Virus record (IMG/VR): IMGVR_UViG_2703718773_000013
Length of the DNA stretch: 14,562 nucleotides
Strand: one strand, 5' to 3'
From: a virus
Lineage: Duplodnaviria; Heunggongvirae; Uroviricota; Caudoviricetes
In this document: piece after piece, positions 1 through 14,562 of the stretch
Position numbering within the stretch: the stretch's first letter is position 1
Layout: every line of letters begins with the position of its first letter
Translations under genes and position numbers: made by a program
The notes under the pieces: model-generated
Seen by the model: the letters and a program-made list of their open reading frames with translations, nothing else
What the model was told of the DNA's origin: nothing
Databases searched by the model: none

Positions 1-2579
<2,579 letters not shown>

Positions 2580-2605
<26 letters not shown>

Positions 2606-3125
2606 TCAGCAACCCCGGTATCAGTTCATCCAGCGCGGCTGCTTTGTTCATGGCTTTGATGATATCCCGTTTCAGGAAATCAACATGTCGGTTTTCCAGT
2701 TCCGGAAAACGCCGCTGCACCGACAGGGGGATCCCGTCGAGAATACTGGCAATTTCACCTGCGATCCGCGACAGCACGAAAGTACAGAATGCGGTTTCCA
2801 CCACTTCAGCTGAGTCTCTGGCATTCTTCAGTTCCTGTGCGTCGGCCTGCGCACGCGTAAGTCGATGGCGTTCGTACTCAATAGTCCCTGGCTGGAGATC
2901 TGTCTCGCTGGCCTGCCGCAGTTCTTCAACTTCCCGGCGCAGCTTTTCGTTCTCAATTTCAGCATCCCTTTCGGCATACCATTTTATAACGGCGGCAGAG
3001 TCATAAAGCACCTCATTACCCTTGCCACCGCCTCGCAGAACGGGCATTCCCTGTTCCTGCCAGTTCTGAATGGTACGGATACTCGCACCGAAAATGTCAG
3101 CCAGCTGCTTTTTGTTGACTTCCAT
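2580..3125 (-). CDS. Nu1: Terminase small subunit gpNu1
   Basis: 181 aa ORF MEVNKKQLADIFGASIRTIQNWQEQGMPVLRGGGKGNEVLYDSAAVIKWY..., recalled as lambda Nu1. ATG at 3125-3123. cos lies immediately upstream. Confidence 0.95.
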
Positions 3126-3139
3126 TGTTCATTCCACGG

Positions 3140-3302
3140 CCAAAAACAGAGAAAGGAAACGACAAAGGCCCAAAAGTTCGTTTTCAGCACCTGTCGTTTC
3201 CTTTCTTTTCAGGGGGTATTTTAAATAAAAACATTAAGTTACGACGAAGAAGAACGGAAACGCCTTAAACCGGAAAATTTTCATAAATAGCGAAAACCCG
3301 CG
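3140..3302. promoter_or_regulatory. cosB-like terminase binding region with repeated Nu1-type R elements
   Basis: Between the Nu1 start and cosN there are three copies of a CGTTTCC-type motif in alternating orientation: 3146-3163 cagagaaaggaaacgaca, 3195-3206 cgtttcctttct, 3251-3264 agaacggaaacgcc. The segment matches what I recall of the lambda left end in reverse complement. Confidence 0.7.
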
Positions 3303-3314
3303 AGGTCGCCGCCC
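3303..3314. other. cosN: 12-nt cohesive-end sequence (reverse complement of GGGCGGCGACCT)
   Basis: aggtcgccgccc at 3303-3314 is the exact reverse complement of the lambda 12-nt cohesive end. Flanks resemble the lambda left end (cgcgggttttcgctatttatgaaaatttt, reverse complement) and right end (cgtaacctgtcggatc...). Confidence 0.85.
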
Positions 3315-3513
3315 CGTAACCTGTCGGATCGCCGGAAAGGACCCACAAAATGATAATAATTATCATCTACATATCACAACGTGCGTGTACGCCATCAAAC
3401 CACGTCAAATAATCAATTATGACGCAGGTATCGTATTAATTGATCCGCATCAACTTAACGTAAAAACAACTTCAGACAATACAAATCAGCGACACAGAAT
3501 ACGGGACAACCTC

Positions 3514-3705
3514 ATGTCAACGAAGAACAGAACCCGCAGAACAACAACCCGCAACATCCGCTTTCCTAACCAAATGATTGAACAAATTAACATCGCTCTT
3601 GATCAAAAAGGGTCCGGGAATTTCTCAGCCTGGGTCATTGAAGCCTGCCGTCGGAGACTAACGTCAGAAAAGAGAGCATCTACATCAATCAAAAGTGATG
3701 AATAA
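3514..3705 (+). CDS. Small ribbon-helix-helix (Arc/CopG-like) protein, 63 aa
   Basis: ATG at 3514 (track ORF starts at an upstream GTG). The protein MSTKNRTRRTTTRNIRFPNQMIEQINIALDQKGSGNFSAWVIEACRRRL has a basic N-terminus followed by an R-F-P..I..AL.....S.N..V pattern typical of RHH folds. SD is weak (gggacaacctcATG). Opposite strand to the late operon. Confidence 0.5.
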   Translation: MSTKNRTRRTTTRNIRFPNQMIEQINIALDQKGSGNFSAWVIEACRRRLTSEKRASTSIKSDE

Positions 3706-3958
3706 TGAATATCCCGGTTTCTTTACCTCCCCTCCCACCCCGCACAGGACTGGCGAACGTGTGGGACAAATATGTGAGTCATAAACGCCTTATCTTCAGA
3801 AATGCAGTTGGCATCCGAACAGGACGATATTGTAACTTCACCTAATTACGAGGCATTGCAGTAGTTGAATTGTAGTTCTGTATTAGCCTGACAGTGACAG
3901 AATGCGATATTGACTCTGTCACAGGTGAAATAGTTTGAATGGTTAGCAGTTATGGCGA

Positions 3959-4165
3959 TCAGTCAACCACCAGGGAATAATCCTTCGAATTCTTATCGTG
4001 CTTCACCAACGCTGCCTCAATTGCCCTGAATGCTTCCAGAGACACTTGATGTTCTATACATGCAATTACAACATCCGGATAACTCATAGAAATGGTGCTA
4101 GTGAGCATAGTTTTTACACGGACCTGATCCAAGGATGAGTCATCAGTGTATTGATCTTTATGCAT
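3959..4165 (-). CDS. Hypothetical phage protein (right-arm ORF, 68 aa)
   Basis: ATG at 4165-4163, 68 aa [26 protein letters not shown]... Position and size correspond to the small forward ORF near the lambda right end, as recalled. Confidence 0.55.
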
Positions 4166-4460
4166 TTTGTCGCTCCATGCGTTTGCTCTTCACTTGCGGC
4201 TAAAAATATAACGTCAAATCACTCAGCATGAAAGTGTGAAAGTTTCAGCGCGTTTCCCTTACATAATCTGTCGTTTGTATTCTCTCCAGGCATACCGGAA
4301 AGACTAGGTATTGTCACACAACCAATACCACCGACTATCGAGATTTATATCTATTCGGTAATGTTTAAATATAACAAAACCCCGTAAAAACGAGGTTTAT
4401 GGGTAAATTGTATTGTTGAATAGCATCTGATAAGAAATTGATGCTAATACTATAAACACA

Positions 4461-4634
4461 CTAGATTAAATCAATCTTGATATCATAGCTTTCAAGACCA
4501 GTCATTTTTTCCCGTGCAGTAAACTGGATACTGGTAACTTCTTTCCCGGTCTTTTTCTTAAGCTCAATAATTTTTTTTGTTATATATTCAGAAATATCTG
4601 CTTCTGTTTTTGTTTTTAACTCTTCAATGTTCAT
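4461..4634 (-). CDS. gnsB: GnsA/GnsB-family small protein, 57 aa
   Basis: MNIEELKTKTEADISEYITKKIIELKKKTGKEVTSIQFTAREKMTGLESYDIKIDLI resembles my memory of E. coli GnsA/GnsB. SD aaagaggaa sits 5 nt before the second ATG (4634). The longer track ORF, with an upstream TTG/ATG, is probably not the true start. Confidence 0.75.
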   Translation of the reverse strand: MNIEELKTKTEADISEYITKKIIELKKKTGKEVTSIQFTAREKMTGLESYDIKIDLI

Positions 4635-4806
4635 CATTTCCTCTTTTAGTCTGTTATGACTTTCCTGGTACACAGTAGTGTCAATTATATGGAGCAAACG
4701 TATAAAAGATAAGATGAAACATCGCAATAATCAACATACGACAGTCTAAATTTCGCACAAACAGATAAAGATGATTATCCTTTATTATCAAGGCATTAGA
4801 ATGAAA

Positions 4807-5037
4807 TCAATTCAAGAGTCTCATTGCTGCTTCCAGAATTTCTTCTGAAGTTACATGTCGATCCGCTGCTACATAAATGACTTTATGATCTCCGGTCAGA
4901 GATGGAAACCCTGCAGCCATTACAGTGAGATGTGTTGTTTCGCCATTTGGATATTCACGCATGATGGTGTTAACTCCGGTCATCACTGGCACTACCATTG
5001 CTGGTTCAGAGTTAAAAAAAACTATTATTTTTTTCAT
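4807..5037 (-). CDS. Hypothetical small protein, 76 aa (sits where ynfN lies in Qin)
   Basis: ATG at 5037-5035 giving MKKIIVFFNSEPAMVVPVMTGVNTIMREYPNGETTHLTVMAAGFPSLTGDHKV... The track ORF begins at an upstream GTG. Lies between the gns-like and cspI-like genes. SD is weak. Confidence 0.45.
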   Translation of the reverse strand: MKKIIVFFNSEPAMVVPVMTGVNTIMREYPNGETTHLTVMAAGFPSLTGDHKVIYVAADRHVTSEEILEAAMRLLN

Positions 5038-5081
5038 GATGTTACCGTAATATGTGAGTATCCATCGACTAGACACTAAGC

Positions 5082-5101
5082 AAAAAAGCTCCCGAAGGAG
5101 C
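5082..5101 (-). terminator. Rho-independent terminator downstream of the cspI-like gene
   Basis: Stem gctcc (5088-5092), loop cgaa, stem ggagc (5097-5101). On the minus strand it is followed by a six-U tract (complement of aaaaaa at 5082-5087). Confidence 0.6.
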
Positions 5102-5308
5102 CTTCATTTTCACTTTCTTAAATCTAACGACAGACGGCTAACATTTAAGTATTGTGAAATATTATCAAATGTAATCATCATTGATTTACAAAAGATACAT
5201 TTTGCCCCGAAAGGATTCCTGTCAGAAACATCAAAAGATGATGTTCTATACTGAGAACCATGGCAACACGGGCATCTAAAGTGAATATGGTTTGTAATAT
5301 TTTCTACC

Positions 5309-5521
5309 TCAAAGTGCCACTACATGAACAGCCGCGGGGCCTTTAGGTCCGTTCTCAATACCAAATTCGACTTGCTGATTCTCAGTTAACGTTTTGAAAT
5401 CGTTGCTCTGAATAGCTGAGAAATGGACAAACACATCTTTGCTACCATCTTTCGGCGTGATGAAACCAAAACCTTTTTCAGGGTTAAACCATTTCACTAA
5501 ACCAGTCATTTTGTTAGACAT
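5309..5521 (-). CDS. cspI: Cold-shock protein, CspA family (CspI-like), 70 aa
   Basis: [70 protein letters not shown] contains the RNP1-like KGFGFI and RNP2-like VFVHF motifs. Long upstream untranslated region, typical of csp genes. Confidence 0.9.
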
Positions 5522-5889
5522 CATTATTACCTTTTGAAGAAGTGAGCCCTTGGGCAGAATGGTCCGAAAAAAATATCAGAGAGAAAAACCAACAAGGAAA
5601 TCTCAAGAGGTACAAATAATAAAATTATAACAATGACTGCTTCAGATAATTTTGTAACAAACCAGAACACCATTAACGCATGATTAACCAACCATAGCAA
5701 GGATTACTTTTGTAAAGAAAAACACACGAATGAAACAATAGCTTTATTTATTAATAAAACGTGTCATTCTGTCTAATGACCTTTTATCTTACCCTTAAGA
5801 TTTCAAGGATTTTGACTCATGGAAGAGTCCTTTTTATTTAAATTTCACATTCAGCGCTAAAAATAATCCGATTTAATGTTAATCTACAT

Positions 5890-6911
<1,022 letters not shown>

Positions 6912-7016
6912 GGATATTTATCAGGATTTATCGGTTTCTGAACCCTGGATATGTTTATCTGTCCCGGCCTGTTGAATCAGGCGGGGAAAAGGTAAAGACA
7001 ATCAAGAGGATTATTT

Positions 7017-7289
7017 ATGGACAATAACACCATTTCTCTACAGGAGTTGCTCGACTGCATTTCAAAGCTTCGGGATGATGTAAATGCCCTCACTGTTGCA
7101 TTTTCATATTTGGCCTTATCAATTCCCAGAGAACAAATGCAACCAACACTGGCATCGCTCCTGCTTGAATCACGCAACCCCAAATGGTCCCAGGAACAAC
7201 AAAATTCTTTCAAGTGGCTGGCGGCATTACTGGAAGAAAAATATGCTGGTAAAATTACCATTTCGGTGGAGTCTTCAGAGAATCAGTAA
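7017..7289 (+). CDS. Hypothetical 90 aa protein, antisense to the late operon and convergent with the ydfR-like gene
   Basis: ATG at 7017 preceded by a strong SD aagagga with 6-nt spacing. Balanced, helix-like composition. Its 3' end overlaps the ydfR-like gene by 35 bp. No clear sigma70 promoter found upstream. Confidence 0.4.
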   Translation: MDNNTISLQELLDCISKLRDDVNALTVAFSYLALSIPREQMQPTLASLLLESRNPKWSQEQQNSFKWLAALLEEKYAGKITISVESSENQ

Positions 7290-7599
7290 TTCTTCCTGGT
7301 AGCTTTCCTTTGTAGGTTATCCACACATTCTGCGCCTCTAAAATTACGGGGCGCTTTTCCGGCGACTGCTCATCCCCTTCACATAACCCGGCTGCAACTT
7401 CCAGGAAGACCTGTCTGATGCTCCTTCTGGCTGCTGCCTCATAAAACTCCAGCGCGGCACCTTCAACACGGTCCAGCGAGATGTCCAGGTCAAAAATTTC
7501 ACCGTCAAAGCGTTTTTTGTCCCTTAATGCTACAGTTACCGCAACTTTATTCTCAAAATTGCGGATCCCTTTCACAATCAGTTCATAGTTTTGTGTCAT
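7255..7599 (-). CDS. YdfR-like protein (DUF1327-type as recalled), 114 aa, between holin and endolysin
   Basis: ATG at 7599-7597 with SD ggagag 9 nt upstream; begins 5 nt after the holin stop. Protein MTQNYELIVKGIRNFENKVAVTVALRDKKRFDGEIFDLDISLDR... The Qin prophage has ydfR at this position (from memory). Confidence 0.65.
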   Translation of the reverse strand: MTQNYELIVKGIRNFENKVAVTVALRDKKRFDGEIFDLDISLDRVEGAALEFYEAAARRSIRQVFLEVAAGLCEGDEQSPEKRPVILEAQNVWITYKGKLPGRITDSLKTPPKW

Positions 7600-7603
7600 T
7601 GAA

Positions 7604-7819
7604 TTACTCTCCCCGTGCAACCTTACGCTTGTCTTCTTTAATCTTGAAATAAAGGTTTGTCAGGTACGTCAGCAAGCCAAATACCAGACTACCCAGCACA
7701 CCGATTGCAGCCCACTGTGACGGAGTTACTTTATCGAGTAACTGCAATGCCCAGAAACCAGCATTACCAGCCGATGTGCCATAGGCGATACCTGTTGTTA
7801 ACTTATCCATTGATTTCAT
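7604..7819 (-). CDS. S: Class II holin, phage-21 S21 pinholin type with dual-start motif
   Basis: 71 aa [71 protein letters not shown]. The Met1-Lys-Ser-Met4 dual start and two transmembrane segments match S21 as recalled. SD ggtgagg upstream. Confidence 0.9.
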
Positions 7820-8006
7820 ATCCTCACCCCGATGTACACAGATGGTGCAATATGTTTGAAAAGATCGGAGTCTATGGGGTAGTTTTTATAGCAAACGTTG
7901 TTCTCAACGGCGCTAAAAAACAGACACATTAAAAATGTGGGTAATTATTTTAAAAGAAAATCATATATTAAATAATAATACGAGATATGTTTTCATATTT
8001 AGTGTA

Positions 8007-8028
8007 CTGTATACGGCCATTTATACAG
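8007..8028. promoter_or_regulatory. Inverted repeat CTGTATA-N8-TATACAG overlapping the ribosome-binding site of the zinc-ribbon ORF (candidate operator)
   Basis: ctgtata (8007-8013) and tatacag (8022-8028) are perfect reverse complements, and the right arm overlaps the aggaaaag SD of the ORF starting at 8038. Spacing between CTGT and ACAG is 14, so it is not a canonical LexA box. Confidence 0.35.
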
Positions 8029-8037
8029 GAAAAGCCT

Positions 8038-8208
8038 ATGTCAGAACGTAAAGACTCAAAATCACGCCGTAATTATCTCGTTAAATGTTCCTGCCTAAAC
8101 TGCACCCAAGAGTCAGAACACAGTTTTTCAAGAGTACAAAAAGGTGCCCTTTTGATCTGCCCTCATTGCAACAAAGTATTCCAGACAAATCTTAAAGCTG
8201 TAGCTTGA
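8038..8208 (+). CDS. Small zinc-ribbon protein, 56 aa
   Basis: ATG at 8038 with SD aggaaa. Protein MSERKDSKSRRNYLVKCSCLNCTQESEHSFSRVQKGALLICPHCNKVFQTNLKAVA has two Cys pairs (CSCLNC ... CPHC) and a basic N-terminus. The track ORF extends further 5'. Confidence 0.45.
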   Translation: MSERKDSKSRRNYLVKCSCLNCTQESEHSFSRVQKGALLICPHCNKVFQTNLKAVA

Positions 8209-8261
8209 TTGATTTTATTCGTAACAAGTATTTTTTATATTTTAATAACATATTTAAAGCA

Positions 8262-8290
8262 GATAATAAAAAACCCGCCTGAGCGGGTTT
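8262..8290 (-). terminator. Rho-independent terminator (minus-strand sense) downstream of the cspB-like gene
   Basis: Stem aaacccgc (8271-8278), loop ctga, stem gcgggttt (8283-8290). The minus-strand RNA ends in a U-rich tract (complement of taataaaaaa). Confidence 0.6.
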
Positions 8291-8571
8291 AATATTGTGG
8301 TACTTTTTGTGGGAGTCATCCACTTACGCACTTTGTTTTGCTATGCCAGCAGTTAGCTTCTGCTGTAAAACTATTCATGCAGCAAACCTGCACTTCACCA
8401 CAATGGTTAGCATACTTTTCCTGATTAAGTTATTGCCAAATATGCTGGCCATTGTTTCATGTATTGGACCTCCTTACTCTTTATTAAAGAGATCCAATAT
8501 TCACCACTCTGTCTGTATCTCCACTCAGGCATCAGCCTTCTTCGTTATCGTATACAGACAAACTATGAATT

Positions 8572-8787
8572 TTAATCAGTAATTATGACATTTGCTGCTG
8601 CAGGACCTTTAGCACCACTCTCTACAGAGAAGGTAACCTTTTGACCTTCAAATAAGGTTCGATAATTATCATTCTGAATCGCAGAAAAATGCACAAACAC
8701 ATCTTTACTACCATCAACAGGAGAAATAAAGCCAAAACCTTTATCAGCGTTAAACCATTTTACTAAACCAGTCATTTTATTTGACAT
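8572..8787 (-). CDS. cspB: Cold-shock protein, CspA family (CspB-like), 70 aa
   Basis: [67 protein letters not shown]... Divergent from the cspF-like gene, as in Qin (from memory). Confidence 0.9.
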
Positions 8788-9087
8788 TCTACATTCCTTA
8801 ACTTGAGCCTTTCGGCATAAATGGCTTGTATAACAGAAACGACTTCGTACTTAATTGGAGAGACTCAAAGAAGGAATAAGTGAATAACACCTGAAATGAG
8901 AACTGCTTTAGTAAACTACTTCGTATATCGTCTGTTCTTCAAACCGACGCAATCATTAACGCATAGTTGAACATATGAAGCAATGTTTATTTTAGACATC
9001 CAGCCATCTTCAACCCCATCAAAAAACTATAGCTTTCTTCAGGAACGTGTGTATAGTGCGCCAAGTTATCAGTATTAAGGAATTTTT

Positions 9088-9300
9088 TTGTCCCGTAAAA
9101 TGACAGGAATTCTCAAAACCTTTGACGGCAAAAGCGGCAAAGGTCTTATAACCCCATCCGATGGTCGTATCGATGTCCAGCTTCATGTTTCAGCGCTCAA
9201 TCTCCGCGATGCAGAAGAAATTACCACCGGATTACGCGTGGAATTTTGCCGGATAAATGGTCTGCGTGGACCATCAGCTGCCAATGTTTACCTTTCATGA
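9088..9300 (+). CDS. cspF: Cold-shock-domain protein (CspF/CspH-like), 70 aa, apparent TTG start
   Basis: [70 protein letters not shown]. The first codon is TTG at 9088, with SD aaggaa 7 nt upstream. An alternative ATG at 9100 would give MTGILK... Confidence 0.8.
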
Positions 9301-9584
9301 GCTATATTAAAGCTTTAACTTCAAGCCCCATCGAATCAAACATGGAGAGTTTTCATGAATAAACCCGTCTGTCTTGATGACTGGTTGATTGGCTTTAAAA
9401 GCTTATGCTGTACTTTGACCTTAATAGCTCTGCTAATAATGTAATAAGCAGACTCATTGTATCTATGGACATTGTACTGGAAGAAAACATTTTAAACATC
9501 AGGCAAAAAACAAAGTCACCCGATAAATAATAAGTAAACTAACATGAATCCCGTAATGAGATTCAACATCTCTATTACCCTATT

Positions 9585-9618
9585 TAAAGCACAAAAACCC
9601 GCTCATCAGCGGGTTTTC
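9585..9618 (-). terminator. Candidate tR' terminator downstream of pR' (hairpin readable in both directions)
   Basis: Stem aaaaccc gc (9594-9602), loop tcatca, stem gcggg tttt (9609-9617). The minus-strand RNA is followed by uuuuugugcuuu. Lies about 100 nt downstream of the Q stop, where lambdoid tR' is expected. Confidence 0.6.
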
Positions 9619-9662
9619 TACTTTTTCTTAACTTCGGGTATACAAAGCCCATCGTTGAAAAA

Positions 9663-9691
9663 ATTTTATCCATATTTTTTGAAAAATGCAA
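9663..9691 (-). promoter_or_regulatory. Candidate late promoter pR' (-35 TTGCAT, 17-bp spacer, -10 TAAAAT)
   Basis: Minus-strand reading ttgcat (9691-9686), 17 nt, taaaat (9668-9663), immediately downstream of the Q stop at 9723. The Q utilisation site should overlap it. Confidence 0.55.
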
Positions 9692-9722
9692 GCATCACGT
9701 CGCCATCTTCGGCGAAAATCAC

Positions 9723-10475
9723 TTATCTCGTCACCTTTCTCAATTGTGCTTCAGCGTAAGATTCCTCCTGCCAGCACTTTGTAACCAGTTTATCAATGAC
9801 ATTTGCATATCCTTTATACCACTGATAATCACTCAGGTCCGGTACCAGCTTCTGGACATGATGCCGCGCCAGTGTGGTTGGTAAACGACTAAACCGTTTT
9901 CCATTGCAACGCCCACAAATCTTATAAACAGGTGTGCCATGAAGCCGGGTCCTTTTTTCATCCAGGACAATACCTTTACCCTTACACCCTCTGCACGCTG
10001 TGCTGACTTCTCCCTTACCATGGCAATGCTGACATAGTTCCTTCACCCACTCTTCTTTGATAACAGATTCCCCGCTTCTGGAGTGTTTCACCACTTCGCG
10101 CAATACATTATGAAATCCAGTACCAGCACAATGCTCACAACGAGCCTTACTTGCCGCAGACCTGGAATAATCAGCAAAGGCAAAATTCACAAGGTAAGGA
10201 ATAATCTGTAGCCGGGTTTCTTCACTCAATTTATTCAATGTCGGGTTATCCAGTGCCATCGCGTAATTGAGCAGACCTTCAATCGCAAACTGAGGATCCT
10301 GAACACCAACTTTTGCCAGGAATAAGGCAAACCCAAGCGGTGCTTTCGACTGCACCATCCCCTGCGCAGCCATCACATCCGTAATCGTTAAACCACCAGA
10401 GCCTGTCGCCGGTGCGTCATCACTCAATTTTGGAGATTTTGGGGAGTAATATTTTGGTAAGGCTTCAAGGTTCAT
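9723..10475 (-). CDS. Q: Late-gene antitermination protein Q (QuuQ/Q21-like)
   Basis: 250 aa MNLEALPKYYSPKSPKLSDDAPATGSGGLTITDVMAAQGMVQSKAPLGFALFLAKVGVQDPQFAIEGLLNYAMALDNPTLNK... with Cys-rich zinc motifs (CEHCAGTG, CQHCHGKG, CRGCKGKG, CGRCNG). Resembles Qin QuuQ as recalled. Confidence 0.9.
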   Translation of the reverse strand: MNLEALPKYYSPKSPKLSDDAPATGSGGLTITDVMAAQGMVQSKAPLGFALFLAKVGVQDPQFAIEGLLNYAMALDNPTLNKLSEETRLQIIPYLVNFAFADYSRSAASKARCEHCAGTGFHNVLREVVKHSRSGESVIKEEWVKELCQHCHGKGEVSTACRGCKGKGIVLDEKRTRLHGTPVYKICGRCNGKRFSRLPTTLARHHVQKLVPDLSDYQWYKGYANVIDKLVTKCWQEESYAEAQLRKVTR

Positions 10476-10488
10476 GCTCGTTCTCCAC

Positions 10489-11484
10489 TTACGCCAGTAC
10501 GCCTATTGCCAGCGCACGATCGATAAAACGAAATATCAGCTCCAGCTGGGAGCCATACTTCTCTTCAAATGCCACGGTATCCGCATGCAGCTCGTCGTGA
10601 TGCTTTCTGCACAAAGGCAACACAAAAAGGTCATGCGCTTTTGTACCCATTCCCCCCTGACCGTGGCCTATCAGGTGGTGGGGATCATCAGCAGGTTTTC
10701 CACAACATGCGCACGGCTGCGTCTTAACCCAGCGCGTGTACTTTTCATTAACCCAGCGGTGACGTTTTGGGCGTAACATAAAAGACTCCGGCGACTCCGG
10801 ATCCACTTTCAGCGCCAGCACCTTTTTCGCCTTATCCTGGATGATGCTGGTGGCAGGAACCGAAGGCACAAGGTCACTTTCCCGGGTAACAGACGGCACA
10901 ACAGGCTTCGGTAATCTCAGTGCCTTACGGGCTGCACTTTCCGGTAAGGCATCCGCCAGATCATTACGAATCAGCCACCAGCACAGTTCCGGCATTGTCA
11001 CAACATGACTGTCATCAAAACCGAGATCCCGACGCACAACAGACAACACCCAGCGGGCACAGTTATCCGTTGCCATTGATTCCAGCCGTTCCGTGAACTG
11101 ATCGCGCAGCTGGTTATCGCAGTGCCAGCACAGACGGATTGCGCCCGGAGCGTGTCGCATTGTTGTCATGTTCTCGCTGTGCCAGTCGGAATGAGGCCAC
11201 TGGCAGCCTTTTTCACGAAGTAACCAGCTTTCAAGACATTCCACGCCACCAGCACGACGGATCACTGCCTCATTGCGGAACACGGCCCGAACGGCAGGAT
11301 CATCCGCCAGCGGTTGTGATGCCGCCGGAACGGCACCACTGGCGAAAGATGAATAACGTTCCGGCTCAGGCTCCAGCAGGACACGCCCCTGCATAAACAA
11401 GGGCATCAGCTCTGAACCTGGTCTGAACAATACGATCCCCATACGCGGGGCAATTTCAGGGGTCAGTAGTGCTCTCACGGTCAC
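10489..11484 (-). CDS. YdfU-like protein (DUF968-type as recalled) with C-terminal HNH-like Cys/His motif
   Basis: 331 aa track ORF starting at GTG. A GTG at 11478 (SD gagg 5 nt upstream) or the ATG at 11442 are alternative starts. C-terminus has CACCGKPADDPHHLIGHGQGG...PLCRKHHDELH, an HNH/zinc-finger-like pattern. Sits immediately upstream of Q, as in Qin. Confidence 0.7.
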   Translation of the reverse strand: MTVRALLTPEIAPRMGIVLFRPGSELMPLFMQGRVLLEPEPERYSSFASGAVPAASQPLADDPAVRAVFRNEAVIRRAGGVECLESWLLREKGCQWPHSDWHSENMTTMRHAPGAIRLCWHCDNQLRDQFTERLESMATDNCARWVLSVVRRDLGFDDSHVVTMPELCWWLIRNDLADALPESAARKALRLPKPVVPSVTRESDLVPSVPATSIIQDKAKKVLALKVDPESPESFMLRPKRHRWVNEKYTRWVKTQPCACCGKPADDPHHLIGHGQGGMGTKAHDLFVLPLCRKHHDELHADTVAFEEKYGSQLELIFRFIDRALAIGVLA

Positions 11485-11485
11485 C

Positions 11486-12301
11486 TCAATGAACGGTATC
11501 GAGCAGCTTTAACAGCTCAGGGAATCGGGATTCGAAGAAATGCGGCTGCGTCTCGCGCGGATTTGCAGGACTGGTGATGTTCTTGCCGAACATGCAGCCT
11601 TTCGCGGTCAGCGACCAGAATTTTTTGATGTTGTTAATCGCGGTACGACTGTATCGTTCGCGTTGTTCAACGATCCCCAGCTTCGCCATCTGGTGATATG
11701 CCTGATTAGCCGTCAGGCGGATACCATACTGCTTCAGCAGTGCACTCAGCGACAGCGTAGGGCGGCTTGAACCATCTGGCGCATCAGCAGGTGCATCAAT
11801 GGCATAGATCGGCATAAGTTCAGGAAGACCAGCTACCTTTGATAATTTCTGGTATGCACCAAGTTTCGAGGAGTTTGACAGATTTAGAGTCTTTGCTGCT
11901 GATTCAAGCAGAATGACCCCGGATTTAATTTTGTCGGATGTGGTTTCTTCTGGTGATGAATTATGAAGCGCATCAAAAGTACGTATCACTTTTAAGCTGA
12001 ATGCCGGGCTGATCCACATTGCATATGCATAGACCAGCTCTTTACAGACATACGTCCCACCATTGCGCCCCTGAATGGTGATGACAGGAATACTACGGGA
12101 ATCTCCCGTAGTTTCTTCTTCCAATAATTCCACAAGAGCCTTCGTTTCAGGACGACGCATAAACTCGTGAACTTCCAGCGAACGGGAGGAGCGATTCTCA
12201 CCAGCGGCAAGAAGAGCAGCTTTCTGAAGGTCGTTAAGACAGTAGTTAGATTCGAAGTACTGGCGCACAGAAACGCCATCAATTACAAGCAACTGATTCA
12301 T
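11486..12301 (-). CDS. KilA-N domain protein (putative antirepressor-type regulator)
   Basis: ATG at 12301 with SD ggag 7 nt upstream (track ORF begins at GTG 12313). N-terminal region LLVIDGVSVRQ...IQGRNGGTYVCKELVYAYAMWISPAFSLKVIRTF matches the KilA-N (APSES-like) signature GRNGGTW...WLSP.F..WV. Confidence 0.75.
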   Translation of the reverse strand: MNQLLVIDGVSVRQYFESNYCLNDLQKAALLAAGENRSSRSLEVHEFMRRPETKALVELLEEETTGDSRSIPVITIQGRNGGTYVCKELVYAYAMWISPAFSLKVIRTFDALHNSSPEETTSDKIKSGVILLESAAKTLNLSNSSKLGAYQKLSKVAGLPELMPIYAIDAPADAPDGSSRPTLSLSALLKQYGIRLTANQAYHQMAKLGIVEQRERYSRTAINNIKKFWSLTAKGCMFGKNITSPANPRETQPHFFESRFPELLKLLDTVH

Positions 12302-12398
12302 TGGTTTCTCCACAAATTTTTATCCACGAGCGGGACTGCACTCCCTTTTCGTTGATGCCGGATGAACTTACTGCGATTTTTAATAGTTATCAAGGATA

Positions 12399-12418
12399 CA
12401 CTGTTCATAAATACAGTA
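12399..12418. promoter_or_regulatory. LexA (SOS) box, CTGT-N8-ACAG, about 100 bp upstream of the KilA-N gene
   Basis: cACTGTtcataaatACAGTa has CTGT at 12401-12404 and ACAG at 12413-12416 with an AT-rich 8-nt spacer. It is the only canonical CTGT-N8-ACAG match I found in a manual scan of the window. Possible -35 (tgaaca) and -10 (tattaa) elements overlap it on the minus strand. Confidence 0.65.
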
Positions 12419-12463
12419 TCTTTAACGAGGTAATACCCAAATTTAGGGTGTTGCTCAATTCCG

Positions 12464-12859
12464 TTACCGAGTTGCTAATTTGCAACTCGCTTTTTCGTAC
12501 TTACTGATAGTGATCTCGACCTTCCCCTCCGGGATAACCGGTCCCCACTCCACCAGCATTCTTTTCACCTGACTGTCGTCTTCCCACACACCCGCGTGGG
12601 TCAGGGCGTCAAACAGCGCCTTGTTATAGTTGTCCAGATCGCGGATCCGGTTATCCGGAGGAAACAACACGATCTCCACTGAAGCAGGTGCCGACGTTGG
12701 TTTCGGCAGACGACGTAACTGCTCAACTATTGCTGCACACGCCGCGCTCTGGAATTTTCGCCCCGCCGCGCTTATCAGGCTCTTACCAGCAAACGCCCCT
12801 TTGTTGGGGTGTCGCCAGTACGTGTTCACGCTGGGCGGAAAAGGCAGGAGCAGCTTCAT
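12464..12859 (-). CDS. rusA: RusA-family Holliday junction resolvase
   Basis: 131 aa MKLLLPFPPSVNTYWRHPNKG...VEIVLFPPDNRIRDLDNYNKALFDALTHAGVWEDDSQV has the RusA hallmarks (PPS.N.Y, RRDLDN, DAL). Start overlaps the stop of the upstream methyltransferase gene. Confidence 0.88.
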   Translation of the reverse strand: MKLLLPFPPSVNTYWRHPNKGAFAGKSLISAAGRKFQSAACAAIVEQLRRLPKPTSAPASVEIVLFPPDNRIRDLDNYNKALFDALTHAGVWEDDSQVKRMLVEWGPVIPEGKVEITISKYEKASCKLATR

Positions 12860-13596
12860 ACTTTCAGGCCTCTCTCATGTAACCAATGGGCTGCACGCAG
12901 CCTAGCGTTTTCCTCACCGGCAAGCAGTGAGCGGATAATCCCGACCGCCTCGCTGTCGTCGTCCTTCACCACGGTATGAAGCGTGATCCCCCGGGCCACA
13001 CCACGCTTTATCGTGATGACGCCTTTTTTCTCCAGTGCGCGAAGATGCTCCACCGCTGCATTCACTGAACGGTATCCCAGCATGGTTGCCACCTCCTGAT
13101 TGGTTGGCGGGAAGCCACGTTCTTTCTGATAAGAAATCAGCATATCCAGCACCTGCAAACGCCCGCGAATAAAAGCAATATGGTCTGCATCTTCCGGCCA
13201 CCACACTTCGCTGGTGGCAGCTTTGATCAGGAAAACATAGCGCCCGCCTTTATCACGCATAGCACTGGCATGTTTCATGATGTAACGCATGCCGGTGATG
13301 TATTGCCCCTCATGCTGACTGGCGCGGCTGTACGGGGGATTGCCAAAGGCAGCACCTTTAAGCTCCGCAAGACGTTCTGACCAGTCATGCGCCAGCGCGT
13401 TGTCTTCCGCAGTGTAATAAGCGGCACATTTGGCGTTATCACCATCAGTAAACAGATCCAGAACAAACGGGCCAAACAGGGTGTTAATTCCCCAGAAAAT
13501 GTTGTCCGGCGTGCGCCACTGATCGCCCACTTCCTTCAGTTCATGGGCTGGTTTGTTCCGCAGCTCCACCAGCGCCTGGCAATATTTATTACTCAT
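12856..13596 (-). CDS. Phage Dam-type N6-adenine DNA methyltransferase fused to a C-terminal LexA-like winged-helix DNA-binding domain
   Basis: ATG at 13596 with SD ggggg 5 nt upstream (track ORF starts at GTG 13629). The N-terminal ~155 aa carry the catalytic NPPY motif (AAFGNPPYSRAS) and resemble prophage Dam methylases. The C-terminal QKERGFPPTNQEVATMLGYRSVNAAVEHLRALEKKGVITIKRGVARGITL aligns with the E. coli LexA N-terminal domain at roughly 60% identity by eye. No S24 peptidase domain follows. Confidence 0.75.
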   Translation of the reverse strand: MSNKYCQALVELRNKPAHELKEVGDQWRTPDNIFWGINTLFGPFVLDLFTDGDNAKCAAYYTAEDNALAHDWSERLAELKGAAFGNPPYSRASQHEGQYITGMRYIMKHASAMRDKGGRYVFLIKAATSEVWWPEDADHIAFIRGRLQVLDMLISYQKERGFPPTNQEVATMLGYRSVNAAVEHLRALEKKGVITIKRGVARGITLHTVVKDDDSEAVGIIRSLLAGEENARLRAAHWLHERGLKV

Positions 13597-14084
13597 TAAG
13601 CCCCCACGTAATTCCCTGACAGATACCACTCTTCACCCGATGCAGCGCGCTTGCTGCTTTTCCGTAAGCACCGCTCACGATGCGCCAGAAAATTGTTTCG
13701 TTCTGGCTGGGAGTGGCTTTCACGGAATGCCGCCATCCACACCGTTGCAGCTCGACGGAATAAGCCCCTGGACTCCAGTTCTTCAGCCTGGCGGGTCAGG
13801 CACAAAATCACCCGGGGGTCGTTAGTGCCGACATAGAAATTGCGCACAGGTCTGGTTTCACGAACAGATTGTGGTTCCGGCTCCTGCGCTCTCTCAGTCA
13901 GGCGCGGGAAATGTCTGCGTGTATCTCCTTCACAACGGTGAGCCACACGCCCACTCTGACGTAACTTGCTTGCTGACTGCAGAACGCGCTGCCGTGAGTA
14001 ACCAGCAAAAGCATCTGCAATGTCTCCGGAAGTACAGCCCGGATGGGCTTCAATGAATTTCTGAACGTCATTCAAAAGACTCAT
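13596..14084 (-). CDS. Putative regulator with N-terminal wHTH-like region and C-terminal PerC-like domain (YfdN-like)
   Basis: ATG at 14084 with SD aggggg 6 nt upstream. C-terminus LESRGLFRRAATVWMAAF...HRERCL...LSGNYVGA resembles the PerC/Pch family signature (GLWRRAA..W ... YVG) as recalled. Stop overlaps the methyltransferase start (ATGA). Confidence 0.6.
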   Translation of the reverse strand: MSLLNDVQKFIEAHPGCTSGDIADAFAGYSRQRVLQSASKLRQSGRVAHRCEGDTRRHFPRLTERAQEPEPQSVRETRPVRNFYVGTNDPRVILCLTRQAEELESRGLFRRAATVWMAAFRESHSQPERNNFLAHRERCLRKSSKRAASGEEWYLSGNYVGA

Positions 14085-14086
14085 GA

Positions 14087-14562
14087 TCACCCCCTGAATC
14101 CTGCCGGGATCTGGCTGTAGTCCACGTTGTCGTAACTGGCTTTGAAGTACGGGTCTTCACGTTTTTCTGTGTGCGTGCTGACGGACGGCGATAAGCGCAG
14201 GGAAAGCTCATCCCATTTTTCCCGCAACTTCGACGGGCTGAGCACGTTACGGCACCAGAACGGATCGCGGCTGACGCGGCTGTACATCTCGCAGATTTGT
14301 TTGTGAGTACGACCATCCTGCACACACATCAGGCGAATTTCGTTTGCCCATGCTGTCCAGTTCGGTTCTTTGGGACGAACCACCTCGCCGTCACATTCGG
14401 CGGCCTGCTCGTACAGGGCAATGATTTTTTTCCAGAGCCACTGTGCGCAGGTCAAATCATCCTGCGTTCCCCACTGGCGCTTTTTAGGGCTGAATACAAC
14501 CGCATCAGGATGGCGAGTTAAAAAATCCTGTTCAGCCGTCTGCGTGTCCGGTTGCGAAGCGT
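14087..14562 (-). CDS. Replication-region phage protein, C-terminal part; 5' end lies outside the window
   Basis: The reading frame is open from the window edge (14562) to the stop at 14087; the track lists only its in-window TTG at 14455. Sequence ...LTCAQWLWKKIIALYEQAAECDGEVVRPKEPNWTAWANEIRLMCVQDGRTHKQICEMYSR... Position is upstream of the nin-like region. Function not recognised with certainty. Confidence 0.5.
   Translation of the reverse strand, partial: ASQPDTQTAEQDFLTRHPDAVVFSPKKRQWGTQDDLTCAQWLWKKIIALYEQAAECDGEVVRPKEPNWTAWANEIRLMCVQDGRTHKQICEMYSRVSRDPFWCRNVLSPSKLREKWDELSLRLSPSVSTHTEKREDPYFKASYDNVDYSQIPAGFRG

Follow-up and report, generated by a model that had tools for sequence, protein, structure and literature searches.

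Introduction

Relatives of the protein studied here include the LEE activators PerC and Pch, of which PerC is encoded in the per operon on the EPEC plasmid pMAR2 and PchA/B/C and PchE belong to EHEC O157:H7. PerC (89 aa) and PchA (104 aa) are single-domain proteins; pchA is a moron beside lysis genes, and pchE lies in a P4-like element. The Pch proteins bind AT-rich DNA and displace H-NS/StpA at LEE1, even though they carry no recognisable DNA-binding motif (PMC4764244). Fukui et al. reported that H-NS was not co-precipitated with PchA (PMC4764244), so direct contact with H-NS is uncertain even for Pch. Members of the ANR (AraC negative regulator) family, namely Aar, Rnr and Cnr, consist of three helices and bind both AraC-type regulators and H-NS/Ler (PMC4983702, PMC10148876). 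They are stand-alone proteins of less than 10 kDa which act as anti-activators through protein binding.

The relationship of yfdN to PerC is already known, since the gene carries the NCBI PGAP label 'yfdN: PerC family transcriptional regulator' and was termed 'the K12 unique PerC homologue' in a 2018 paper (PMC5931665). The UniProt-style name remains 'uncharacterized protein YfdN', and our literature search found no published experiments on YfdN itself and only unrelated papers for SfV orf40. In this study, we analysed a yfdN copy in a stretch of 14,562 nucleotides of a Caudoviricetes genome (IMG/VR record IMGVR_UViG_2703718773_000013), hereafter the window. An original prediction made from the letters of the window had described this gene as a prophage regulator with a PerC-like C-terminal domain, placed next to a methyltransferase gene.

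Results and discussion

The yfdN coding sequence occupies positions 13596..14084 on the minus strand and encodes 162 aa from an ATG start to a TAA stop at 13598-13596, as given in the list of open reading frames. The three peptides quoted in the original prediction, LESRGLFRRAATVWMAAF, HRERCL and LSGNYVGA, were all found in its translation. PGAP and the K-12 annotation use instead a GTG start at 14090, which gives an ORF at 13596..14090 on the minus strand and a protein of 164 aa; the M-S-L start is invariant throughout the YfdN family. The window allele is identical in DNA to that of the prophage in E. coli O55:H7 strain CB9615, and the protein shares 96% full-length amino acid identity with YfdN (b2357) of the K-12 element CPS-53 and about 95% with SfV Orf40, all of equal length. 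It differs from its relatives by a few substitutions, such as H135 (R in relatives) and F109 (Y in relatives). The protein matched phrog_1324 over its full length (aa 1-161, E 5.2e-78), and dN/dS was 0.12-0.24 when the window allele was compared with the K-12 and SfV alleles. Judged by this substitution pattern, yfdN is a genuine gene on which purifying selection acts. The ORF is an ordinary yfdN copy of an SfV/CPS-53-type lambdoid prophage.

DNA matching yfdN was found in 3317 of the 5426 complete E. coli genomes (about 61%), as well as in phages SfV, SfII, SfIV, mEp460 and ST64B and in Stx2c phages. The family alignment showed that the two-domain layout described below is kept in 24 relatives, the most distant of them with 24% identity, and that the motifs M-S-L..FI..NPG and LAG.Y.G are retained.

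The yfdN gene belongs to the early-right operon. The replication-initiator gene immediately precedes it, the methyltransferase, LexA-like, RusA and Q genes come after it, and the junctions abut or overlap. Neither a sigma-70-like promoter nor a terminator-like site on the coding strand was found in the yfdN region. The same gene order as in the window occurs in CB9615, phage SfV, K-12 CPS-53 and metagenomic relatives, which bears out the prophage context given in the original prediction. The K-12 and SfV loci likewise have a replication gene upstream of yfdN and a Dam-type methyltransferase gene downstream.

The upstream junction lies at 14087..14094 (minus strand) and consists of the TGA stop of the replication gene at 14089-14087, the GTG at 14090-14088 that overlaps it, and a Shine-Dalgarno-like GGGGG run at 14094-14090, 5 nt upstream of the ATG at 14084. 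In divergent relatives the junction between the two genes is a 4-nt overlap. The 3' part of the replication-initiator gene, which is of the HTH_36 plus Phg_2220_C type and equivalent to K-12 yfdO, covers 14087..14562 on the minus strand and leaves the window at its end. It matched phrog_391 'replication initiation O-like' (E 9.5e-58); the CB9615 annotation has a 313-aa gene at this position and K-12 has yfdO in the same place.

This neighbourhood raises the question of whether YfdN acts with the upstream initiator and not in transcription, either as an accessory protein of replication or as an exclusion factor, comparable by its position to lambda Ren or P. In about 9 of the 13 family branches examined, yfdN directly follows the Phg_2220_C/HTH_36 gene and in most cases overlaps it at the start and stop codons. 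The gene orders seen in these modules contain no helicase loader annotated as a gene of its own, and the N-terminal part of YfdN weakly matches phrog_142 'Ren-like exclusion protein' (E 0.008). However, the Ren match is marginal, other members of the family are located away from replication genes, and the C-terminal module is common to PerC/Pch, which are known to act on transcription. YfdN is not a replacement for P, as one member is preceded by a lambda-P-type gene. We regard a role in replication or exclusion as decidedly unlikely.

The downstream gene is an ORF of 246 aa at 12856..13596 on the minus strand. The original prediction had coupled it to yfdN by an ATGA overlap; the junction in fact reads TAATG, in which the yfdN stop and the start ATG have 1 nt in common, at 13596. 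The ORF had also been taken for a methyltransferase-LexA-domain gene. It is composed of aa 1-146 of a Dam-type N6-adenine methyltransferase joined, near 13156, to aa 11-108 of a protein that consists of a LexA DNA-binding domain only, and Pfam accordingly found positions 3-125 of the 169 positions of the Dam profile plus LexA_DNA_bind. About 235 bp of CB9615 (L001 15622-15856) are missing from the window. All of the best 12 E. coli matches gave a two-piece alignment over a span of 981 bp, with the two genes apart in each, and there are two genes in every close relative listed. By these alignments the ORF is a chimera created by a deletion of about 235 bp, an artefact of this prophage copy and not a designed fusion; in this fusion of the methyltransferase to the LexA-like gene the window differs from the K-12 and SfV loci.

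The neighbours of yfdN were compared in 13 family branches, that of the window included. A methyltransferase gene directly follows yfdN in seven of them, with overlaps of 1-4 nt, and these methyltransferases belong to three Pfam families, Dam (PF05869), D12 (PF02086) and MT-A70 (PF05063). In one further member, a single small gene separates the yfdN-family gene from type I hsdM/hsdS genes upstream of it. The association with three different families would suit a protein that partners the adjoining DNA methyltransferase, either in DNA targeting or specificity or in the control of its expression or activity. On the other hand, yfdN is followed by the LexA-like gene in one member (P0170) and by Q in another (P0131), and stands in other contexts in two more (P0187, P0219). 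In some E. coli gene calls yfdN and RusA form one fused gene, which implies that there are prophages lacking the methyltransferase gene, and yfdN is intact and conserved next to truncated methyltransferase genes such as K-12 yfdM and that of the window. Because the LexA-like and RusA genes co-occur with yfdN equally regularly, the association with methyltransferases may be plain module synteny. An obligate pair was rejected, as some members have no adjoining methyltransferase; the regulatory pair suggested in the original prediction is thus compatible with the seven branches and not required by the others. In our judgement a functional partnership with the methyltransferase is unlikely.

The N-terminal part of YfdN (aa 1-60; 13905..14084, minus strand) is predicted by AF2 as a winged helix-turn-helix domain with helices at 3-13, 19-25 and 31-44 and a beta-hairpin at 47-60, and pLDDT was 86-92 across these residues. 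Foldseek against the PDB showed that aa 3-60 resemble the winged helices of ArsR, SmtB, MarR, MepR, SlyA, BlaI, PerR and Z-alpha, with an rmsd of 1.6-3 A over 56-69 residues (about 2-2.5 A over 58-69 residues for ArsR, MarR, BlaI and MepR) and a probability of about 1.0; the E values of this short domain were 0.07-0.3. The model and these matches thus agree on the three helices and hairpin of a MarR/ArsR-like winged helix. HMM searches gave weak matches only, all under the curated cut-offs, namely phrog_1687 MarR (6.5e-5) and BilQ (0.0025) for YfdN and, for the homologue P0164, HTH_24 (E 3e-4, 20.6 bits against a cut-off of 21.9). YfdN is predicted to share the fold of MarR/ArsR-type factors, with no profile match strong enough to place it in a named HTH family. 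It lacks the MarR-type dimerisation helices and, unlike those factors, has one winged helix that a linker connects to a helical module of unrelated kind. The winged-helix look noted in the original prediction is in keeping with both the confident model (pLDDT about 90) and the weak MarR and HTH_24 matches. The structural evidence supports a winged helix at about aa 1-60, and its binding to DNA is a prediction.

The linker (aa 63-84; 13833..13898, minus strand) is rich in Pro and Glu and is predicted to be disordered, with pLDDT below 50. Its columns in the family alignment are gapped and non-conserved, and both its length and its sequence vary across the family.

The C-terminal part contains a three-helix module (aa 90-148; 13641..13817, minus strand) with a PerC-type motif, A100-x2-L-E-x2-G-x2-R-R-A-A-x2-W116 ... 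R129 ... R136-x2-C139, and is the counterpart of the N-terminal half of PerC/Pch. AF2 placed its helices at 90-105, 109-122 and 126-148 with pLDDT of about 90. No significant structural match to this module was found, the best being to helices of a generic, TPR/MIT-like kind (E above 0.4). The Pfam profile PerC (PF06069) matched aa 98-149 with E 7.3e-8 and 33.0 bits, above the gathering cut-off of 22.6 bits, so the C-terminal resemblance named in the original prediction holds. In BLASTP, YfdN was 39% identical to PchA over 44 aa (E 7e-7) and 35% identical to EPEC PerC over 46 aa (E 6e-6), which makes a helical segment of about 46 residues with 35-39% identity common to these proteins. The A, L, E, G, RRAA, W, R and C columns are invariant in an alignment with PerC, PchA, PchE and six other members. 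These alignments show homology between the C-terminal module of YfdN and the first half of PerC/Pch.

The match covers only positions 5-56 of the 90 positions of the profile, whereas PerC, PchA and PchE match positions 1-89 with 143-153 bits. The second conserved PerC/Pch block, A..T...MG[I/L]....FR (profile positions of about 57-90), is absent from YfdN in the alignment. YfdN is also not a small single-domain protein of about 90-105 aa such as PerC and PchA; as had been noted, it is larger, its 162 aa comprising in addition the winged helix, the linker and a tail of its own. This tail (13599..13640, minus strand) contains W-Y-L-S-G-N-Y-V-G and is specific to the family, with the consensus L-A/S-G-x-Y/F-x-G. 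The tail motif is conserved in the two-domain YfdN family to 25-30% identity and does not occur in PerC/Pch, and the AF2 confidence of the tail is low. PchE was considered as a YfdN-type protein and rejected, because it is a full-length PerC domain of 90 aa in a P4-like element.

Both YfdN and PerC/Pch are carried on mobile elements. The nearest genomes for the window yfdN include O55:H7 CB9615 and one O103:H2 strain, serotypes which are usually LEE carriers. Together with the conserved motif residues in the Pfam match, this would be expected if YfdN activated ler (LEE1) in the manner of PerC/Pch and so coupled LEE expression to prophage induction in an EPEC/EHEC host. Uhlich et al. deleted yfdN as a precaution from an MG1655 ler::lacZ reporter strain (PMC5931665). 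Apart from the half-length match and the missing second block, three further points oppose this reading. The full-length PchD and PchE themselves activate ler barely or not at all. LEE-negative K-12 has the gene too, DNA that matches it is found in 61% of complete E. coli genomes, and phages of Shigella and Salmonella encode homologues. It is moreover a core gene of the early-right operon, unlike perC in its per operon, the moron pchA or pchE in its P4-like element. No specific connection of the gene with the LEE island emerged. YfdN is thus very unlikely to be a LEE activator, and the earlier equation with PerC/Pch was overstated, given the half domain, the score of 33 against 143-153 bits and the occurrence in K-12.

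The module was also compared with the ANR family, whose members likewise have a module of three helices and some 50 residues. Their published signature, A10, E14, A22, W26, A29 ... R47 ... C51, aligns with A100, E104, A112, W116, A119 ... C139 of YfdN. The NCBIfam model ANR_neg_reg (NF033650) matched aa 96-129 of YfdN with 19.1 bits (E 8.6e-4), below the curated cut-off of 32 bits, and proteins of the PerC and YfdN families matched it repeatedly and in one register with 13.6-28.5 bits, also below the cut-off, and E values down to 1e-6. By curated score YfdN is therefore not an ANR protein, nor is it a stand-alone protein of less than 10 kDa, its three-helix module being the C-terminal domain of an 18-kDa protein. 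In the reverse direction Aar did not match the Pfam family PerC, and hhalign of the PerC/YfdN alignments with a narrow Aar-only alignment was not significant (probability of about 1.5%, E 0.03); the homologue search for Aar gave just 6 close relatives. Since both of these tests were negative, the ANR link comes from the sub-threshold NCBIfam matches alone.

Conclusions

We favour, with modest confidence, the view that YfdN is a delayed-early DNA-binding regulator or anti-silencer and not a dedicated LEE activator. Upon prophage induction YfdN would be made as a delayed-early product, and its winged helix would bind DNA. The PerC-type module may then make protein contacts, either in self-association or with nucleoid or regulatory proteins such as members of the H-NS family. 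By such contacts YfdN could regulate or anti-silence phage promoters, and possibly host promoters, as Pch relieves H-NS silencing. A broader and rather doubtful extension is that the module shared by YfdN, PerC and Pch is the same ancestral module as that of the ANR anti-regulators and that YfdN is its winged-helix, DNA-tethered version; YfdN might then be a widespread phage-borne modulator of xenogeneic silencing that is switched on at prophage induction and maybe coordinated with the orphan methyltransferase that often comes after it.

Public annotation and the literature already record the gene, its label as a PerC-family member and the prophage setting, which have little value as discoveries. 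The PerC label on yfdN should not be read as 'LEE activator', because YfdN has just half of the domain in common with PerC and the gene also occurs in LEE-negative strains. A winged helix joined to a PerC/ANR-like module is a layout that offers a concrete hypothesis for YfdN, whose gene matches DNA in most complete E. coli genomes.

Results

The region belongs to a lambdoid prophage, and 3274-14562 is 99.9% identical, except for one deletion, to a prophage in E. coli O55:H7 CB9615. The remaining 1-3273 encodes two lambda-type terminase proteins, Nu1 (Pfam E 4e-101) and gpA (8e-73), and has no BLASTN match in the CB9615 prophage (E ≤1e-10), which places a mosaic breakpoint near 3273. In the CB9615 prophage, outside the window (L001 23657-27484), the anti-phage defence sirtuin gene dsr1 adjoins the integrase.

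The yfdN ORF is present as originally predicted, on the minus strand at 13596..14084 (162 aa, ATG at 14084), with all three quoted peptides in its translation. A GTG start (13596..14090, minus strand, 164 aa in the ORF listing) is used by PGAP and the K-12 annotation and overlaps the upstream stop as GTGA; a GGGGG run lies 5 nt upstream of the ATG, and the M-S-L start is invariant across the YfdN family. The dN/dS was 0.12-0.24 against the K-12 and SfV alleles, and yfdN is a genuine coding gene under purifying selection.

The gene is a very common prophage gene that is annotated already. Its allele is identical in nucleotides to that of CB9615, annotated "yfdN: PerC family transcriptional regulator", and its product is 96% identical to K-12 YfdN (b2357, cryptic prophage CPS-53), with yfdO and yfdM as neighbours in both. 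Of 5426 complete E. coli genomes, 3317 contain DNA matching 13300-14562. YfdN is also encoded by phages SfII, SfIV, mEp460, 1720a-02 and Stx2c- and Stx2a-converting phages; the SfV copy is orf40, annotated "transcriptional activator", the Salmonella ST64B homologue shows 69% identity, and phrog_1324 of PHROGs matches over the full length (E 5e-78). A 2018 paper named yfdN "the K12 unique PerC homologue" (PMC5931665). Our literature search found screens and lists and no functional study of YfdN itself: overexpression caused glycogen excess in a screen, the gene is tabulated among expression changes in work on how CFT073 responds to nitric oxide, and it was assigned to a predicted interactome cluster.

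The PerC-like C-terminus was borne out by an HMM search, in which Pfam PerC (PF06069) scored 33 bits (E 7.3e-8) over aa 98-149, above the gathering score of 22.6. YfdN was compared with PerC of EPEC (pMAR2) and with PchA and PchE of O157:H7 Sakai; pairwise BLASTP put identity at 39% with PchA (44 aa aligned) and at 35% with EPEC PerC (46 aa aligned). The resemblance is not due to chance. Residues A100, L103, E104, G107, R110, R111, A112, A113, W116, R129 and C139 (YfdN numbering) are invariant in the alignment and R136 nearly so. The resemblance is partial: PerC, PchA and PchE each cover all 90 profile positions with 143-153 bits, whereas YfdN covers positions 5-56 only. Where PerC/Pch have a further conserved block, A..T...MG[I/L]....FR, YfdN has its own tail, WYLSGNYVG. 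A YfdN family profile recovered just 157 clusters (E ≤0.001) from 1.84 billion representative proteins, including two-domain proteins of 140-165 aa that keep both domains and the tail at identities down to 24%, and PerC-type proteins of 60-113 aa that stand alone and align with profile positions ~96-146 only. YfdN is therefore a member of a separate subfamily of two-domain proteins on the margin of the PerC family.

An AlphaFold2 model based on 12 homologues predicted an N-terminal domain (aa 3-60; helices 3-13, 19-25 and 31-44, beta-hairpin 47-60; pLDDT 86-92), a disordered linker (aa 63-84; pLDDT <50), a C-terminal module (aa 90-148; helices 90-105, 109-122 and 126-148; pLDDT ~90) and a low-confidence tail (aa 149-162) without confident structure. 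Foldseek against the PDB matched the N-terminal domain to the winged helices of ArsR, SmtB, MarR, MepR, SlyA, BlaI/MecI, PerR and Z-alpha (rmsd ~2-2.5 A over 58-69 residues), with E-values of just 0.07-0.3, which is usual for a domain of 60 residues. Weak HMM matches agree (phrog_1687 MarR, 6.5e-5; BilQ, 0.0025; HTH_24 in homologue P0164, 3e-4), and the proposed winged helix is structurally supported. Modelled alone, the C-terminal domain also gave a confident three-helix fold; its structure search returned nothing beyond generic TPR/MIT-like helical proteins (E >0.4), and the family profile had zero matches among PDB sequences.

The gene order, replication initiator (HTH_36/Phg_2220_C), yfdN, methyltransferase, LexA-DNA-binding-domain protein, RusA, KilA-N, DUF968 and Q, is that of the early-right operon of SfV-type phages, and a scan of 12300-14562 found no sigma-70-like promoter and, on the minus strand, no terminator-like site. 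The 122-aa ORF at 14087-14455 is just the C-terminal end of the replication-initiator gene (313 aa), which is cut by the window end; in K-12 this fragment is annotated as yfdO. Between yfdN and the gene downstream the junction reads TAATG, with an overlap of 1 nt, rather than the ATGA once proposed.

The downstream "methyltransferase-LexA" ORF (12856-13596, 246 aa), taken earlier for a single gene, is an in-frame chimera, rather than a designed fusion, with a junction near 13156. The window lacks ~235 bp present in CB9615 (L001 15622-15856), and this deletion fused the first 146 of the 217 methyltransferase residues to residues 11-108 of the LexA-like protein; the NPPY motif is kept, while the Dam-type methyltransferase has lost its last 71 aa and the LexA-like protein its first 10. 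Two separate genes are found in 12/12 best E. coli matches. The ~108-aa LexA-like protein (window 12856-13182; L001 15321-15647; relatives' loci L006 6278-6607 and L014 3450-3824) is a LexA DNA-binding domain alone, without the S24 peptidase domain, and is kept just upstream of RusA across the phage module.

Twelve divergent family members and the window gave 13 branches for neighbourhood analysis. A methyltransferase lies immediately 3' in seven, with a 1-4-nt overlap and from three Pfam families: Dam PF05869 (window, P0229, P0182), D12 PF02086 (P0164) and MT-A70 PF05063 (P0153, P0175, P0165). Elsewhere a LexA-like gene follows without a methyltransferase (P0170), the downstream gene has no Pfam match (P0205, P0163) or the context is another one (P0187, P0219). 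P0131 (39% identity; L022 1-2980) lies directly before the Q antiterminator, and a single small gene separates it from type I restriction-modification hsdM/hsdS genes upstream, another methylation-related neighbourhood. In divergent relatives the methyltransferase occupies L006 5444-6268, L008 5456-6109, L016 3474-4142, L011 3462-4013, L013 920-1450 and L020 761-1342, and in every case its overlap with the YfdN-like stop codon is 4 nt; families are swapped and function is retained.

Discussion

The original observation is confirmed and its interpretation partly supported. The adjacency behind the suggested regulatory pair with the methyltransferase recurs in 7/13 branches, but it is not obligatory, and yfdN stays intact beside truncated methyltransferases in K-12 (yfdM) and the window. 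A functional tie to methylation is possible, and noteworthy because the position is kept while the methyltransferase family changes; plain module synteny could also explain it. The replication gene (Phg_2220_C/HTH_36), upstream in ~9/13 branches, is the steadier neighbour, and this constant coupling, with a weak phrog_142 match (E 0.008), would fit a replication or Ren-like accessory. Both a methyltransferase partner and a replication accessory have less support than a regulator.

A dedicated LEE activator, the role suggested by PerC/Pch, is unlikely. YfdN has only half of the PerC domain, the full-length PchD and PchE themselves activate ler barely or not, and yfdN is carried by LEE-negative K-12 and by Shigella and Salmonella phages; nothing specific ties it to LEE.

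The NCBIfam ANR_neg_reg model (AraC negative regulators) matched YfdN, five relatives among those tested, PerC, PchA and PchE in one register (E 0.046 to 1e-6), at 13.6-28.5 bits, under the 32-bit cut-off. The regions concerned are window 13638-13793 (aa 98-149), L002:2492-2758 (PerC), L005:43369-43680 (PchA) and L004:8773-9042 (PchE). The ANR signature from the literature, A10, E14, A22, W26, A29 ... R47 ... C51, aligns with YfdN A100, E104, A112, W116, A119 ... C139. ANRs have three helices and bind AraC-type regulators, H-NS and Ler (PMC4983702, PMC10148876). The link of PerC/YfdN to ANR is only suggestive, because the ANR protein Aar has no Pfam PerC match and hhalign against an Aar-only alignment was not significant. 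Our literature search found no statement of a PerC-ANR relationship, and the term-matched passages of the ANR papers are silent on PerC.

Pch binds AT-rich DNA and lowers H-NS/StpA occupancy at LEE1; its effect is lost once the silencers are deleted, and it has no recognisable DNA-binding motif (PMC4764244). Such anti-silencing is how the best-studied relatives of YfdN act on transcription. For YfdN, domain layout, operon position and purifying selection are established. As a regulator, it would be a delayed-early product made on induction, whose predicted winged helix may bind DNA and whose PerC-type helical module may make protein contacts.
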